Assembly (NCBI GenBank): GCA_965219405.1
Contig: OZ244736.1
Span: 143,730 to 207,729, forward strand
Source: Dehalococcoidia bacterium
GTDB lineage: Bacteria > Chloroflexota > Dehalococcoidia > UBA6926
Length of the DNA: 64,000 bases
Reading direction: 5' to 3'
Shown in pieces: positions 25,927 to 33,531 of the stretch. Under the pieces are notes generated by a model that saw only the letters and a program-made list of their open reading frames with translations, searched no databases and was not told the DNA's origin. Made by a program: the position numbers and the translations under genes. How positions within the stretch are numbered: the stretch's first letter is position 1; every line of letters starts with the position of its first letter.

Positions 25927-25955
25927 TTGACGTATATTCCTATTCGGCGTAGGTT
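25927..25955 (+). promoter_or_regulatory. Putative sigma70 promoter for the CoA-transferase pair
   Basis: TTGACG-17 nt-TAGGTT; followed by hairpin TCGGGCG/CGCCCGA (25968-25991) and GGAGG RBS. Confidence 0.6.
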
Positions 25956-26008
25956 CAAAGTGTGTGGTCGGGCGCATTTGAATTCGCCCGAATTATGGAG
26001 GATGTGTC

Positions 26009-26857
26009 ATGACGAGAATCGTCAGCATCGAAGAAGCGGGCAATCGATTCAAGGACGGGATGCTCATCGCCACCACTGGCGGCAATGACCGCGCATCCAT
26101 GGCGCTGACGCGGGAGATTGTGCGTCGCGGCATCGAGGACCTCACCCTCGTGTTCACGCCTGCGGGCGGCGTGCAGGGCGACATGCTCATTGGCGCGGGC
26201 GCGGTCAAGGCCATAGACACCGGCTCTCTCACGTTCGGTGAGCGGGGGTTCGCGCCGAACTACCGGCGTGTAGCCAAAGAGGGAGGAATCGCCGCGCTGG
26301 ACAGTACCTGACCCGTCACGCTCACAGGGCTCCAGGCTGGAGCCAACGGCGTGCCGTTCATTCCGTCCCGTGGCGTGATTGGCACCGACCTCGTCAATCT
26401 CCACCCCAACTGGAAGATCATCGAAGACCCCTACAACGAGGGACATGACATCCTGCTCGTTCCGGCCATTCGTCCGGACATCGCCATGATCCACGCCTTC
26501 AAGGCTGATCAGAACGGCAACGTCCTTGCGCCGAGCTACGAGGACCGCATGGTTGCCCAGGCAAGCGACAAGGTTCTTGTGACGGTTGAGGAAATCGTCG
26601 ATTACGACCTCTCCGAGGATTCGCGCGGCGGCCATCTGATACCGTGGCCGTTTGTCAGCCTCGTTATCCACACCCCGAAGGGCTCGCACCCCGGCGGCAT
26701 GAAGCCGTACTACGAGGCGGACAATGATCACTTCTCGCAGTACATGGAGGCCTCCAAGACGTCCGACGGATTCAAGGCATACCTCGACGAGTTCGTGTGT
26801 GGGCATACCGAGGACGAGTACCGCGAGATGGTGACACGCGTCGCCGTTCCCGCATAG
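26009..26857 (+). CDS. Family I CoA-transferase subunit A (GctA-like), 282 aa with in-frame TGA at codon 101; probable selenoprotein
   Basis: Track ORFs 26009-26311 and 26351-26857 are in the same frame and separated only by TGA 26309-26311; joined read DST-U-PVTLTGLQAGANGVPFIPSRGVIGTDL; motifs LVPAIRPD, ADQNGN, VTVEEIV, GSHP. Confidence 0.85.
26312..26353 (+). promoter_or_regulatory. Candidate bacterial SECIS element
   Basis: Lower stem CACGCT(26317-22)/GGCGTG(26348-53); upper stem GGCTCCA(26328-34)/TGGAGCC(26338-44); apical loop GGC starts with G, with 23 nt between it and the UGA. Confidence 0.7.
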
Positions 26858-26879
26858 ACCGTCGTACATCCCGAGCGCG

Positions 26880-27626
26880 ATGCCGTTTCAGTCAGACGAC
26901 TACACGATCGGCGAATTGATGGCCACCCGCATTTCGCGGGAGGTTCACGACGACACATATGTCGGTTCGGGCGCCGCATCACCGGTGCCGATGGCCGGTG
27001 TCCTTTTGGCACAGGAGACGCATGCGCCGGACATGATCTACATCGCAATCGGCGCGTCCAACCCTGCGCTAAGCCCGATCAGCGGCAAGGAGACCTTTGA
27101 CCTCGCCCAACGTGGCAAGCTCGACATCTTCTTCCTGGGCGGGGCGCAGATCGACGGCCACGGCAACATCAACCTGACCACAATTGGCGACCATGACAGG
27201 CCGGACGTGCGCCTCCCCGGCGCCGCCGGCTCCGGGATGCTCTACTTCATGACGAATCGCGTCATCCTCTTCCGCCTGGAGCACACCAGGCGCGTCTTCG
27301 TGGAAGATGTGGATTTCATCACGTCCGCCGGCTCTAGCGGGGAGCGTGTGGAGCGCCCCGGCGGCCCTTCCATGCTCATCACCAACATCTGCGTGATGAT
27401 GTACCAGAAGGATCAGAAGAAGTTCCTGCTTGAGTCCGTCCACCCCGGCGTCTCCGTCGATGAGGTGGTGGAAAACACCGGATTCGAGATCCTCATTCCC
27501 GACGAGGTGCCGGTGACAACGGCCCCGACGCCGGAGCAATTGGAACTACTTCGTGGCTCCATCAAAGACCGCGTCGGCGGCGAATATCCGGGGTTCGTCG
27601 CATCGGGAGGATTCGGGGACTCGTAA
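26880..27626 (+). CDS. Family I CoA-transferase subunit B (GctB-like)
   Basis: THAPD, FLGGAQIDGHGNINL, RLPGAAG, FVEDVDFITS, LESVHPGVS..EV.ENTGF. Confidence 0.92.
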   Translation: MPFQSDDYTIGELMATRISREVHDDTYVGSGAASPVPMAGVLLAQETHAPDMIYIAIGASNPALSPISGKETFDLAQRGKLDIFFLGGAQIDGHGNINLTTIGDHDRPDVRLPGAAGSGMLYFMTNRVILFRLEHTRRVFVEDVDFITSAGSSGERVERPGGPSMLITNICVMMYQKDQKKFLLESVHPGVSVDEVVENTGFEILIPDEVPVTTAPTPEQLELLRGSIKDRVGGEYPGFVASGGFGDS

Positions 27627-27765: not shown

Positions 27766-29841
27766 TCAACATCCCCCGGTGGTTGCGCTGACCTGAGCGT
27801 AGTCGTGCCAGCGGTTCGAGTACTGCGCCTGCACCTGGAACTCATAATTTGTCGCGCACGTGAGGCCGGACACCGTCGCTTCCTGCCTGCGGGTGCCCCA
27901 CGTGCTGATGTCGACATACGCACCGAACGTCCAGTCCGTTGCCCCTGCGAGACGATAGTTGACGCGAACGTCCTGCAGGTGCGTGCCGGACGGCCTCACC
28001 TTGTCCCAGCTCACACGGACGCTGGTTGCGGTCACATCGCTGACTGAGGGATTTCCTCTGTTCGGGTCGGGTGTCGGCGTGGCTGTCGGAGGAACCGGTG
28101 TTGGAGTGGCCGTTGGGGGGACGGGAGTGGGGGTAGCGGTTGGCGGAACGGGGGTGGGCGTGGGTGTCGGCGTTGCAGTGGGTGCGACAGTAGGCCCTGT
28201 GCTCGTGTCGCGGATGCGCAGCATCAACTGGTCGCCGTCTTCCCATGGGGCGCTGGTGACACTCCATGTCCAAGTCGCCGCCGTTTGATTAACCGTAGCG
28301 TCGGAGACATCCAGAGTCGTATCGATAGACCCGTCAAGCTCGATAAAGTCCAGAGAGTTACCGCTCAGAGAAACGTGGTCATCCAGCGTCAGGACGACGG
28401 AGTTGCTCCGCCAGATAAGACTCTCAATCTCATAGTCATCGCCATTGAGGGTGAATTCATCCGGTTCAATGACCCCGGAAGATGCCGTCGTGCCCACACC
28501 GCCGCCGGTTAAGTCAACAGGATCAAAGATCGCCTCATGAAGAGTCCCACTGGGAGCGGTGACGGTCACGAAGTGCTCTTCGCTCGTCCGCTCCTCCTCC
28601 GGCAGTCCGTCGCAGACGACGAGCCCCTTCTCCATGCTGATGAAGTAGAACCTGTACTCCCCCGCCGGAAGTGGACGTGCCAGGGACACCTCGCCAGGGT
28701 ACTCCACGACGAATAGACTCTCGTCCTGCCCGTCCAGCTGGAACATGCTCGCATACTTGCTGGGGATGGTCTCGCCATAGTCATCCACCCAGATGTGCCA
28801 GAGCTCGTAGGTGTGGAACAAGCTTCCCGCCGCCTGCCCGGACGCCAGTGCATGGTCGTACCGATCGTAGTAGTAGCCGCCTTCGCCCTGGGCGGCGCGT
28901 TCTTCCTTGGTTTGGCTTACCCAGTTCTCATACTCGTACTTGAACCGGACGCACTCCCGGTACTCCTCCGAGCCGTCCCCCTCCCCGACCTCCGCGTCCA
29001 GCTCTGCGATCTTTGTCTTCATGTCCGCCAGGTTGATGGTGGCGGCCTGCGACGCGCCCTGATTACCCGGCAGGGCCCGCGCCATCCATGAAAGCACTGC
29101 CCCGCCCCCCGAAGGCGGCTCCTCAAGAAGGAAGCGCTGCGCCCCTGCGCTGGGCGCAGCCCCGCTGGATGCCCTCGCCTCGTCAACTGGTACTGGTAGA
29201 CTGTCAGACGCCGCCGGCAGCCACACCTTGGAGTACCGGCCGGCTATAGTGTAGTTTTCCTGCCCATAGGAGTTGCGCAGAGACCAGAGGAGGTACCTGT
29301 CCGCTTGCCCGGTGCTTGGCAGATATGGTTCGTCATCATGCAGGAACACTATCGCCTCCCGGGCGTCCCACCTTGTGTCCCTCTCTCCCAGGAAGTCTTC
29401 TGCGCCTGCGCCCGCCTCCGCCCTAGTTGCAAGAAGCCCATACCAGTCAACTGCTATCGCCACAAGCTCGCTTCCACCGCTCCCCTTCAGGTACTCGTGT
29501 ACCTTGAACCTGAACTCCAGGGCGTTTGCGTACGAAGTGTCTCCTTGGTTGGGCCGTCCGGAGATTTCCTCCACCACCTGGGCCGCGGTTACCAGAGTCA
29601 CCCTTGCTATGGCGTCACTCCGCACTATCCTCTCCTCCAGCGAAGTCTCGGGGAAGTCGGGGGGAGGGATCCACCAAGCAGACTCTCGCTGCAAGCCTCC
29701 AGACGCGCCCGGCAGTGGCGAATTCCCGTTCAGACTCATTGATCCGGCATAGAGGACGGCGGCTGCCAACGCCACGGCCAGGACTATGAGGACTCCAGCA
29801 ACGGAGTAGAGGCGTCGTCTTCTGCGTACCATTGCCAACAT
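27766..29841 (-). CDS. Secreted or membrane-anchored protein with PT linker and C-terminal fibronectin type III domain
   Basis: AGGAGG RBS; RRRRR plus hydrophobic N-terminus; PTATPTPVP repeats; SDVTATSVRVSW...VSGLTCATNYEFQVQA. Confidence 0.85.
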   Translation of the reverse strand: MLAMVRRRRRLYSVAGVLIVLAVALAAAVLYAGSMSLNGNSPLPGASGGLQRESAWWIPPPDFPETSLEERIVRSDAIARVTLVTAAQVVEEISGRPNQGDTSYANALEFRFKVHEYLKGSGGSELVAIAVDWYGLLATRAEAGAGAEDFLGERDTRWDAREAIVFLHDDEPYLPSTGQADRYLLWSLRNSYGQENYTIAGRYSKVWLPAASDSLPVPVDEARASSGAAPSAGAQRFLLEEPPSGGGAVLSWMARALPGNQGASQAATINLADMKTKIAELDAEVGEGDGSEEYRECVRFKYEYENWVSQTKEERAAQGEGGYYYDRYDHALASGQAAGSLFHTYELWHIWVDDYGETIPSKYASMFQLDGQDESLFVVEYPGEVSLARPLPAGEYRFYFISMEKGLVVCDGLPEEERTSEEHFVTVTAPSGTLHEAIFDPVDLTGGGVGTTASSGVIEPDEFTLNGDDYEIESLIWRSNSVVLTLDDHVSLSGNSLDFIELDGSIDTTLDVSDATVNQTAATWTWSVTSAPWEDGDQLMLRIRDTSTGPTVAPTATPTPTPTPVPPTATPTPVPPTATPTPVPPTATPTPDPNRGNPSVSDVTATSVRVSWDKVRPSGTHLQDVRVNYRLAGATDWTFGAYVDISTWGTRRQEATVSGLTCATNYEFQVQAQYSNRWHDYAQVSATTGGC

Positions 29842-29855
29842 CGCTGCACCTCCTG

Positions 29856-31976
29856 TCACTGCCCTGACGAAGCCGGATGCGGCGTATGGTTGTAATATAC
29901 GTCCCGGAGGTAGTCCCGATCCTCGTTCGGAATTGCTGTCGGCTTCTCGACTCTACCCATGATGTAGTCGGCGTAGCTGCAAATGCCGAAATACTCGCAC
30001 GGTTTGCCCTCAAGCCGATACAGGTCTTCCAGGCCCGCAGCATGGCCGAATTCGTGCATGACCGTCCTCGGCACGTAGTAGTAGCGGCGGTAGAGGCTTC
30101 CCCTTACTTGCTCGTCATGCAAATCGGGATCGTTGACCCAGGTAATCGCCAGGAAACGCCCTTCAATGTCTGGGTGAGGTCGACGCGCCGGTTGCTCGAT
30201 GACCATTGTCGAGGCGTTTATGTGCTCGAGGGCATCGACACTAACTATCGCGTATGCGAGGGTGAGGCCATCAGTTCCAGTCGCTGTGTTAATGACGATC
30301 GACTTGCCGTCGGTATTCCTGTCCACGCCGTTTATCGTGCAGCCACTCCCCTCGCAGAAGAGCACGTGGGGCCAGGGCGTGGCGACCGCCTCGTTCCATG
30401 CGACGACGGCGTGGGCAATGGCCGTTGGAATGACGATTCCTGGATCGGTTGACGGCGTAGCGCCGGGCCTGGGCGTCGGAATCTCGCCAAGCCGGTACTT
30501 TACCGTGTGATCCCCTGCATGCCCCAGGTTGGGAAGCGGCACCTTCGTCTCAATCTCCACCCACCCGGAGTATTGACTGCCTCGCTTTGCCCTGATTCTG
30601 TGCTTGTAGGTATGGTCGTAGTCCAGCCCGCTGATCACGGCCCCCGTGATGATGCCGGGGCCACGGTTGAACACAATCTCTATGTCCCTGTTAGGAAGCG
30701 GATACCAGTCGTAAACTGGAAGCAGCGGAACCCACTTGGCCCAATGCTCCACCTCATAGGTGATTCCAATACCCGCTGCATCGCTCCAATCGAGGTATAT
30801 CTTCCCTATCTTTTCCCCAGTCCTAAGGACATCAGTGTCTATGGCCGAGGCTCGGTCATGCAGGCCCGTTAGCACTGGTGGTCTGGGCGTAAGGGTTGCA
30901 GTGGGCGTCGGTGTGTTGGTGGGTATAGGCGTAGGATCATCGCAGTTGTCCTCTATATCAACGGTCGCGGTGGACGGTGAACCCAACCCAACGCCAGATG
31001 GTAAGGCGCCAAAGCCGAGAGTCAGCCTCTCGTCGGCGCAATCCGAATCCGCAATGGCGTTGATTGTGAACGACGCCGATGTGACTCTATTAAATGGAAG
31101 GCTACTGCCGCTTAGCCCACTTATGCTGTAATCTGCGGATTCCGCAGACCCGAGTGTCACCGTGATTGGTATCATCAATGTTTGATCGCTCGCTCGACTG
31201 AGCCGGACAGTGATGGTCTTGTTACGTTCCTCATCGACTGCGTACGATGACGGGCTGAAACGTACCGTTGGTGTCGGTGGTGGCGGGCACCCAAGCGCTG
31301 TGGTGCTGATGGATTCGATCGCAGAAGGAGGCCCATAGGCATGTCTGTACCTGATCCCATTCCCATACGCGGACACGCGGAAATAGTTCGTCCCTTCGCA
31401 ACCGGCCGGGTAGACGTCGCTTGATCTCCTTGCTTGCCTTGCCCAATCATCCCCGCTGTCTCTGAGTGGTAGAACGCTTCCCCACGCGCCTCCGCTTCCA
31501 ACTCGACGCTCCACCCGGTAGGTGGGTGCGTATGGCATGAACGTCCACCGGACATTAGCTCTTCTGGTTGTGCCCAACGGCGTCGCGGCCGTCACCGAGA
31601 CGTCTTCTACTGCAGGTGGCGTGGGCAAGGGTGTTGGCGTTGGTGTAGGTGGCACGGGCGTAGGCGTATTCGTCGGCGGGACGGGTGTATTCGTCGGCGG
31701 GACGGGCGTATTCGTCGGTGGGACAGGCGTATCCGTCGGCGGGACGGGTGTATTCGTCGGTGGGACGGGTGTTGGGGTTGCTGGATATGGATCCTCGATT
31801 GGATCGAATGGAATGAATGCGGTTGGAACCGGCGTGGGTGTCGCTGTCGGGGGTATATAAGGATCATCCCCGCCCTTGCCGAATGCGGCAGGGTTGCTGA
31901 CCACAATATAGGCAATAGCGATCAGCAGGGCGATGCTGGCTACAACCTGCAGCGCCGTCTTGCCAATACTCAACAA
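29856..31976 (-). CDS. Secreted modular protein: PT repeats, FN3-like, Calx-beta-like, C-terminal metzincin zinc peptidase
   Basis: N-terminal hydrophobic anchor; [12 protein letters not shown]...ATVDIEDN; [16 protein letters not shown]; [11 protein letters not shown] plus YIMG Met-turn. Confidence 0.85.
31663..31767. repeat. Five tandem 21-nt repeats encoding Pro/Thr-rich PVPPT(N/D)T units
   Basis: GG(C/T)GTAT(T/C)CGTCGG(C/T)GGGAC(G/A) x5, contiguous, inside the CDS. Confidence 0.9.
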
Positions 31977-32340: not shown

Positions 32341-33531
32341 ATGGTTGCAACTGAAATCGCCGAGCGGGGAGTGGATCTGGGCATCGAAGACAGAGCGCCG
32401 GAGTTCAAACAGCTGCAGCGCGCTTACGGATTTGAAGAGGTGGCCATCGTTCCGGGGCGCGTGACCCTGAACCCGGAACAGACGGATATCAGGTTCGCAA
32501 TGGGGGATCGTATATTCGACCTGCCGATACTCGCGGCGGCAATGGATGGCGTCGTGGATCCCGCCTTTGCCGCCACCTACACACGCCATGGCGGGCTTGC
32601 CGTGCTGAACCTTGAGGGCGTCCACGGGCGCTACCCCAACCCGGACGAGGTCTTGCACGAAGTCGTTGAAGCGCCAGCAGACTCCGTAACGGCCACCCTG
32701 CAGCGCATCTACTCCGCCCCTATCAGGGATGAGTACCTTGGCGCGACCATCGAAAAGATGAAGGCACTCGGTGCAACCGTCGCCGTCTCGGCGACGCCTG
32801 CCAACACCAAGCGGTTCATCGACACCGTTGTTGAGGCCGGAGCGGACTACTACGTGTGCCAATCGACGGTCACGACGGCGCGACACATTTCAGCGAGCCC
32901 CGTCGGTCTCCACTTTGATGATTTGGTGAGCCGAATTCCGATCCCCGTGATCGTTGGCAACGTCGTTGGTTATCACCAGACGATGGAACTACTGCAGACG
33001 GGCGTCGCCGGCATCCTCGTCGGCGTCGGCCCCGGCGCCGCATGCACGAGCCGTGAGGTGCTGGGCATCGGTGTGCCGCAGGTCACCGCGACCATTGAGA
33101 CGGCTGCCGCGCGCGATGAGTACCAACGGCGAACCGGCCGCTACGTTCCCATCATCACGGATGGCGGCATCCGCTCCGGCGGTGATCTGTGCAAGGCCCT
33201 CGTTGCGGGCGCGGACGCCGTCATGCTCGGCTCGATTTTCGCAAGCGCGGAAGAGGCGCCCGGCAAGGGCTACCACTGGGGCATGGCGACGCCGCATCCC
33301 GCCCTGCCGCGCGGCACCCGCGTGCGTGTTGGCGTCCGTGCGGCGCTTGAGCGTTTGCTGTTCGGGCCCACAGATCGCACGGACGGCACGGAGAACCTTG
33401 TTGGGGCTATCCACACGGCGATGGGCATGTGCGGCGCGGAAACCATCCGCGACCTGCAGCAGGCGGAGATGATCGTCGCCCCCGCCATCAAGACCGAGGG
33501 CAAACAACTCCAGCTATCCGGCCAGGTCTAG
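32341..33531 (+). CDS. guaB: IMP dehydrogenase-related protein, GuaB3 type (no CBS domains)
   Basis: RAYGFEEVAIVPG, AAMDGVV, VGVGPGAACTSREVLGIGVPQ, ITDGG, HWGMATP..ALPRG. Confidence 0.92.
   Translation: MVATEIAERGVDLGIEDRAPEFKQLQRAYGFEEVAIVPGRVTLNPEQTDIRFAMGDRIFDLPILAAAMDGVVDPAFAATYTRHGGLAVLNLEGVHGRYPNPDEVLHEVVEAPADSVTATLQRIYSAPIRDEYLGATIEKMKALGATVAVSATPANTKRFIDTVVEAGADYYVCQSTVTTARHISASPVGLHFDDLVSRIPIPVIVGNVVGYHQTMELLQTGVAGILVGVGPGAACTSREVLGIGVPQVTATIETAAARDEYQRRTGRYVPIITDGGIRSGGDLCKALVAGADAVMLGSIFASAEEAPGKGYHWGMATPHPALPRGTRVRVGVRAALERLLFGPTDRTDGTENLVGAIHTAMGMCGAETIRDLQQAEMIVAPAIKTEGKQLQLSGQV

Follow-up and report, generated by a model that had tools for sequence, protein, structure and literature searches.

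A pair of adjacent genes in the genome of a Dehalococcoidia bacterium encodes two proteins, A and B, that resemble the subunits of glutaconate CoA-transferase (GctA and GctB) and differ from them at the catalytic site. The B subunit has lost the glutamate that carries the reaction in GctB. The A subunit has an in-frame TGA codon at a column occupied by cysteine in its full-length homologs, and this column aligns with the catalytic glutamate of the A subunit of another enzyme of the same fold, IpdAB. Moreover, the residues at the two sites follow a complementary pattern across the relatives of the pair. We propose that the pair is probably an uncharacterised cysteine/selenocysteine-dependent enzyme that processes acyl-CoA. 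In its specific form this reading, to which we give a probability of roughly 0.55 from comparison of sequences, holds that the pair is not a transferase, that Cys/Sec101 of A is catalytic and that the catalytic residue has moved from B to A. The features of the pair are given below by position and strand in the window, which is the whole 64,000-nucleotide stretch of DNA analysed here.

26009..26860, plus strand: gene of the A subunit (GctA-like), 282 codons and a TAG stop, read through a single in-frame TGA.
26309..26311, plus strand: TGA codon 101 of A, taken as selenocysteine (DST-U-PVT).
26314..26356, plus strand: SECIS-like hairpin, with an apical 7-bp stem (26328-26334/26338-26344) and a lower stem CACGCU/GGCGUG.
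26880..27626, plus strand: gene of the B subunit (GctB-like), 248 codons and a TAA stop, 19 nt downstream of the A gene.
27021..27059, plus strand: B residues 48-60, HAPDMIYIAIGAS, with no acidic residue at the place of the catalytic Glu.
27048-27050 and 27051-27053, plus strand: B residues I57 and G58, which occupy the place of GctB Glu54.
27090..27092, plus strand: B residue Glu71 (GKE-TFD), a near-invariant acid and a candidate active-site or structural residue.
27135..27173, plus strand: B residues 86-98, LGGAQIDGHGNIN, a motif common to GctB (IGGAQIDPYGNVN).

Both subunits belong to the Pfam family CoA_trans (PF01144), which A matches with 54.1 bits (1.8e-14) and B with 79.5 bits (3.1e-22), above the cut-off of 23 bits. 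When compared with the sequences in the Protein Data Bank, A aligned to GctA (1.6e-24), to AibA (1.1e-20) and to the IpdA chains 6coj_A (3.6e-21), 6con_A (1.1e-20) and 6co6_A (1.2e-20), and B aligned to GctB (6.7e-26), AibB (4.6e-24) and IpdB (2.3e-18). GctAB (1POI), AibAB (5MZW-5N03) and IpdAB (6CO6, 6CO9, 6COJ, 6CON) are the only solved relatives that are significant for both subunits. None of the curated NCBIfam cut-offs was reached by A or B, and NCBIfam has no model specific to such a pair; with the equivalog models of AtoD/AtoA and PcaIJ/ScoAB, the scores of A were 29.3 (cut-off 315) and 23.8 (cut-off 128.5), and that of B was 26.9 (cut-off 243.55). We infer that A and B form a heterodimer on the glutaconate-CoA-transferase (class I) fold. 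A search of 1.84 billion representative proteins with B returned 2319 sequences at E<=0.001, 970 at E<=1e-10 and 111 at E<=1e-30. The gene at 26880..27626 is the single B-like gene of the 1.9-Mb, single-contig genome, whose closest public relatives are Dehalococcoidia MAGs. An open reading frame of 304 aa lies antisense to the entire A gene (25955-26869, minus strand) and is most likely an artefact of the GC-rich sequence.

The initial annotation of this DNA had stated that B lacks the catalytic glutamate, the segment THAPD being followed by no acidic residue until the Glu of SGKETFD. The translation agrees with this description. Around the site it reads ...AQETHAPDMIYIAIGASNPALSPISGKETFDLAQRGKLD..., within the longer stretch ...QETHAPDMIYIAIGASNPALSPISGKETFDLAQRG..., and D51 and E71 have no acidic residue between them. 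The equivalent stretch of GctB, ...YAPDCHIIVESGL..., has its catalytic Glu within ESG, and the part of GctB that aligns with residues 48-60 of B is APDCHIIVESG, in which the Glu is opposite Ile57/Gly58. The exact partner depends on the alignment: in the phmmer alignment to GctB (1POI_B), G58 is opposite the 'E' of IIVESG, in an ungapped reading I57 is opposite the catalytic Glu, and in a profile of 21 family members the ESG of GctB is an insertion. In none of the three does an acidic residue of B take this place. The catalytic Glu has index 52 in the chain 1POI_B, and it was equated with the Glu54 of the literature through an assumed offset of two residues and the text of the mBio 2017 paper. 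In the available text of that paper, Glu54 is the essential glutamate of GctB, and IpdB of strain RHA1 has Gly57 at this place (mBio 2017). AibB has Cys56 there, according to the available text on AibAB (PMC7756340).

The loss of Glu at position 58 of B is a family-wide trait and not chance. Among 120 B homologs this position is Gly in 108 and Glu in two (P0201 and P0217, in which it reads 'LES'), which leaves 118 with no Glu. Asp and Glu are likewise absent from B 57-58 in 71 of the 72 loci that could be aligned, out of 80 related loci; the exception is locus L090. Among the best 150 of the 2319 B-type representatives, 12 have a Glu in the catalytic column, to which P0382 can be added by its motif and P0251 by eye, and the others have none.

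Two further regions of B are strongly conserved. Glu71, which lies in KETFD, is present in 118 of 120 homologs, and all of the 77 loci that could be aligned have it. It was considered as a counterpart of GctB Glu54 and set aside on the alignments, in which it is matched with the Asp of 'vgDlrf' in GctB and of 'ipDLFD' in AibB. Since both proteins carry this second, non-catalytic Asp besides their residue at position 54/56, E71 is probably not the equivalent of Glu54. In the segment 86-98, residues G88, D92, N96 and N98 are invariant across 21 B sequences; this GGAQID..GN.N motif is one that we take to belong to the CoA site.

In the A subunit, all 112 full-length homologs have Cys at the column of codon 101, in the motif D-[SA]-T-C-P. 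The remaining 8 of the 120 homologs are entries of 168-180 aa that were annotated from after the TGA, and they are the 8 closest database entries. Residues P102, E78, R121, H162 and D167 are invariant in the same 112 sequences, and C101 is the sole invariant Cys across A and B. Codon 101 is TGA in 8 of the 80 related loci and Cys in 72. The TGA is shared by seven other Dehalococcoidia genomes (82-96% identity), in which both halves of A are in frame and conserved, while locus L026, which is among the 8 TGA loci, is only 42% identical, and locus L094 represents a third Chloroflexota lineage with TGA at this codon.

Residue 101 can be placed on the fold by its alignment to IpdA. Both U101 and the Cys of a natural homolog, P0016, aligned without gaps to 'remdEgm' of chains 6co6_A and 6con_A and to 'remdAgm' of chain 6coj_A, in a stretch that can be described by the pattern ..D-S-T-C/U-P-x4-G-L-Q-A-x4-(V/I/L)-P-F-(I/M/L)-P-x-R... 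The residue aligned to U101 is the sole difference in this region between the RHA1 chains 6co6_A (E) and 6coj_A (A), and the latter is presumably the E105A variant of IpdA. Glu105 of IpdA is reportedly an essential catalytic base beside the bound substrate. The earlier proposal that the Sec/Cys of A could provide the chemistry gains from this alignment, by which residue 101 would occupy a position that is catalytic on this fold and would lie near the CoA site. The same column has Gln in GctA and Gly in AibA. The invariant E78 of A is specific to the Cys family, and neither GctA nor IpdA has an acid there.

We take the in-frame TGA of A to be a selenocysteine codon, because the genome has the machinery for selenocysteine, because the TGA is found in three Chloroflexota lineages and because each of these has a hairpin of its own. 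SelA (448 bits), SelB (305 bits) and SelD (389 bits) were all found above their cut-offs, together with a tRNA-SeC(tca). The selD gene (G000:C1:1125436-1126356) itself has one in-frame TGA, and SelD is probably a selenoprotein too. The hairpin that follows codon 101 has a minimum free energy of -22.4 kcal/mol when folded on 50 nt (z -2.09; 5 of 200 shuffled sequences were as stable), and on 70 nt its z is only -0.49, which is not above shuffles. Across eight genomes, codons 101-110 are identical in DNA at 8 of 10 positions; the other blocks reach 0-4 of 10, except codons 111-120 with 5 of 10. At the same distance from the codon, hairpins that differ in sequence occur in the Sec forms L026 and L094, and the one Cys form that was folded, L032, has no hairpin. 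Contigs from RNA libraries give a weak hint that the pair is transcribed. Four sponge-metatranscriptome runs of one study contain five short contigs of 95-100% identity, two of which cross the TGA (26232-26641 and 26221-26423) with no difference at 26309-26311, and one of which crosses the A/B junction (26767-26920); these libraries may contain DNA, the depth is 2.5-4, and uncovered parts carry no meaning. Small shares of the segment 25900-27700 were also found in runs labelled sponge metagenome or metatranscriptome.

The residues at the two sites vary together. In the Cys/Sec family of 80 loci, A has Cys or TGA in all, and the acid of B is absent in 71 of the 72 that could be aligned. For comparison, 80 loci were retrieved with a profile built from 8 B representatives that bear the Glu, and B has the Glu in all 80. 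Here the A column is Asn in 48 loci and His in 22, with no Cys or Glu, and in the other 10 the A gene was not found or was cut; Asn or His on A thus accompanies the B glutamate in 70 of 70 cases that could be determined. Seven of the best 150 representatives are fused A-B proteins, and these follow the same rule within one chain: four have no glutamate on B and carry one at the A column, as in IpdAB (P0305, P0315, P0369 and P0370, 542-606 aa), and three retain it and have His or Asn on A (P0353, P0373 and P0385). The co-occurrence of Glu loss with Cys/Sec gain that the initial annotation had offered as a check is therefore borne out, with the addition that in the four fusions the Glu-less site goes with Glu and not with Cys or Sec.

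The complementary pattern reflects a few clades and not many independent events. A FastTree phylogeny was made from 131 B sequences, drawn from 150 rows (the query and P0242-P0390) after 19 shorter than 215 aa were dropped, with P0170 left out. On this tree the Glu label needs three changes. The clade that contains the B subunit of the window has 52 rows and a support of 99, and P0251 is its only member with the Glu. Furthermore, the loss of the B acid is not absolute in the Cys/Sec family, as can be seen in L090, L094 and P0251. Locus L090 (B gene from about 1579) has Cys on A together with 'LES' on B; in L090, P0201 and P0217 this 'LES' replaces 'LGS', which puts the Glu one residue past the canonical position. 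In locus L094 (2123-3723), which comes from a groundwater Chloroflexi MAG, the A gene of the pair again has TGA at this codon (DTA-TGA-GT), together with a hairpin of its own. On the B side, L094 carries Asp57 and its 88%-identical relative P0251 carries Glu57. A Sec-bearing A subunit can thus occur together with an acidic residue on B.

The genes around the pair in the window are housekeeping genes and give no hint of a substrate. On one side are proB and recF; on the other are two genes for secreted proteins with fn3 domains or PT-rich segments, and then guaB3 (32341-33528). The two large genes (697 and 706 aa; 27766-31976, minus strand) have PT-rich linkers, one of them with fn3. In seven related genomes guaB3 directly follows B, so the two large genes look like an insertion specific to this genome. 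No steroid-catabolic gene (ipdC, echA20, fadA6) was found among the neighbours of the pair in the window. Around the Cys forms, within 8 kb of the pair, the 80 loci include a family III CoA-transferase in 19, an ABC ATPase in 19, an SDR in 18, an acyl-CoA dehydrogenase in 13 and an acyl-CoA ligase in 8, and further neighbours form a 4HBT thioesterase cluster of five genes. These counts were made with our own GC3-weighted ORF caller, which is imperfect (cluster 6 is antisense to B), and with one Pfam-annotated representative per cluster. Such neighbours are consistent with import of an organic acid, its activation by a different enzyme and its transfer to the A/B pair.

From these observations the following mechanism can be proposed, by which the pair would be a third type of non-transferase with the GctAB fold, next to IpdAB and AibAB. 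Subunit B, which keeps the fold and the GGAQID..GN.N motif, would supply the CoA site, and subunit A would supply the chemistry through Cys/Sec101, at the position of IpdA Glu105; the exchange of Cys and Sec suggests that residue 101 is a working residue. The substrate would most likely be a CoA thioester supplied by a second enzyme, either an acyl-CoA ligase or a CoA-transferase of family III. The family III CoA-transferase, SDR, acyl-CoA dehydrogenase, ligase and 4HBT thioesterase genes near the Cys forms fit a substrate that arrives already activated. The thiolate or selenolate would then serve as nucleophile or base towards the acyl part, at an activated carbon of a beta-keto or alpha,beta-unsaturated thioester. 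Addition to the activated double bond or keto group could lead, through covalent catalysis, to C-C cleavage or to cis-trans isomerisation. Alternatively, by shuttling a proton, the residue could bring about an isomerisation or, in the manner of AibAB, a decarboxylation. Overall, the reaction would be one of three kinds: hydrolytic C-C cleavage, isomerisation or decarboxylation. Two other invariant acids, E71 of B and E78 of A, could be the real catalytic residues. The initial annotation had left the choice between acyl transfer through Sec and a different reaction, and the different reaction now appears the better option. Its further claim, that a Glu-less pair would in itself be a new mechanism on this fold, does not hold, as IpdAB and AibAB are characterised non-transferases without this Glu.

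A covalent role of Sec101 is a tentative possibility, well short of an even chance: a selenoether, a selenoester or an Se-S bond to CoA would replace the glutamyl thioester on this fold. If this is true, the CoA-transferase superfamily would gain its first selenoenzyme, Sec would have a non-redox function in it, and the large Cys-type branch in alpha- and betaproteobacteria, Paenibacillus and Chloroflexota would be an unrecognised enzyme class.

The initial proposal was that U101 is an acyl acceptor. The residue would attack the thioester carbonyl and free CoASH, with formation of an acyl-selenoester, or an acyl-thioester in the Cys forms; we regard this as unlikely, and the same holds for the subsequent step, in which the acyl group would be passed to water or to another acceptor and the pair would be a thioesterase or acyltransferase. 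Selenocysteine surpasses cysteine both as a nucleophile and as a leaving group, and the lost B glutamate is matched by an invariant nucleophile that is gained at the same interface. In addition, four loci with one conserved gene order (L037, L038, L039 and L056) have a gene of the thioesterase superfamily after the pair; locus L049 has the same order, with a B gene that the ORF caller missed. However, U101 aligns with IpdA Glu105, which reportedly acts as a base on the acyl ring, and not with the B glutamate that meets the thioester. Moreover, a thiol or selenol cannot carry CoA, so CoA transfer would not be restored in this way.

A role in redox chemistry or thiol exchange seems improbable. 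Cys/Sec101 would form a mixed (seleno)sulfide with the thiol of CoA or with a sulfur substrate, and the pair, again improbably, would handle CoA disulfides, persulfides or a reductive cleavage, in the manner of single-Cys CoA-disulfide reductases. Most of the bacterial selenoproteins catalogued in the main text of the 2026 review are redox enzymes, and its table includes a Sec form of CoA-disulfide reductase (UGxP). Genes for GST, DinB, an aldo-keto reductase or an SDR stand beside some Cys forms, but they vary by locus, the aldo-keto reductase, GST and DinB genes, like one for an alpha/beta hydrolase, being found at single loci. Against such a role, neither A nor B has a second conserved Cys, and a flavin or Fe-S domain is absent from both proteins.

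It is quite improbable that the pair is still a CoA-transferase, working through Glu71 of B or Glu78 of A with Cys/Sec101 as an accessory. These acids are as conserved as the Cys (E71 in 118 of 120, E78 in 112 of 112) and the GGAQID motif is kept. On the other hand, E71 aligns with an Asp that is extra to the position-54/56 residue of GctB and AibB, E78 lacks an acidic counterpart in GctA and IpdA, and many Cys forms have separate CoA-transferase or ligase genes beside them. IpdAB, which has suffered the same loss with Gly57 in place of Glu54, shows no CoA transfer in the available text of the report on it (mBio 2017). Finally, the notion that the pair is decayed and non-catalytic, with the TGA as a nonsense mutation and B as a relic, is hardly credible: gene callers do cut A at the TGA in the 8 closest entries and the hairpin is not above shuffles on 70 nt, but the halves of A are in frame and conserved in seven other genomes, the TGA falls exactly on the invariant Cys and is present in two further lineages, and the Sec machinery is complete.

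The preferred reading, a non-transferase with Cys/Sec101 as its catalytic residue, has consequences for annotation. A Glu-less B subunit is known on this fold from IpdAB and AibAB; what is new is the partner A with Cys or Sec. Proteins of the CoA-transferase fold are usually annotated by fold alone, and about 9 in 10 of the best 150 B-type cluster representatives lack the catalytic Glu, so that labels such as 'glutaconate CoA-transferase subunit A/B' are probably wrong for them. A simple rule can sort the pairs: a B subunit with Glu is paired with Asn or His at one fixed position of A, and a Glu-less B subunit with Glu, Cys or Sec at that position. The exchange of Cys and Sec marks position 101 as a working residue of a widespread, uncharacterised enzyme. 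The function can be tested, as hosts of Cys forms such as Paenibacillus and Bradyrhizobium are cultured; natural Cys-type pairs occur in Paenibacillus allorhizoplanae (L023) and Bradyrhizobium stylosanthis (L074).

The Cys/Sec branch is not described in the literature searched, and the searches returned no relevant Sec- or Cys-dependent enzyme of the CoA-transferase fold. The pair resembles catalogued bacterial selenoproteins in that the UGA falls on a Cys column, a hairpin lies 5-47 nt downstream, and SelA, SelB, SelD and tRNA-Sec are present. The CoA-transferase/PF01144 family is absent from the main text and table of the 2026 selenoprotein review and from the main text of the BSepDB paper; the pair thus adds a selenoprotein family that is absent from the main texts of these catalogues.

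GctAB of Acidaminococcus fermentans (1POI) is the best-scoring solved relative of both subunits, has the same order of two genes, A and then B, and shares the GGAQID..GN.N motif of B. The two pairs differ at the catalytic positions, GctB having the Glu of ESG and GctA a Gln, in contrast to Ile/Gly and Sec in the pair of the window. AibAB, the 3-methylglutaconyl-CoA decarboxylase of Myxococcus xanthus, has the same fold with the B Glu replaced, and it is among the best matches in the Protein Data Bank. It is a non-transferase, a decarboxylase whose chemistry takes place on the acyl moiety of a CoA thioester, and its AibB Cys56 is dispensable by mutagenesis, as described in the available text (PMC7756340). 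The AibB variants in the Protein Data Bank differ exactly at the Cys56 column, where the B subunit of the window has I57/G58. Thus AibAB has its Cys in the B subunit, where the Glu used to be, and a Gly in the A column, whereas the invariant Cys/Sec of the pair described here is on A.

IpdAB is the COCHEA-CoA hydrolase of steroid ring catabolism, reportedly with an essential Glu105 on A. It is also a GctAB-like A/B pair, with Gly on IpdB at the place of GctB Glu54, and its substrate is a ready-made CoA thioester, as would be that of the pair in the window. The differences are that the similarity is only about 70-80 bits, which indicates a separate clade, that E78 of A is a feature of the Cys family, and that the pair in the window has no steroid-pathway neighbours there. 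By alignment, the catalytic residue of IpdA would fall in the same A column as U101; it is Glu105 in IpdA, whereas this column has TGA, read as Sec, in the pair described here and Cys in 112 of 112 homologs.
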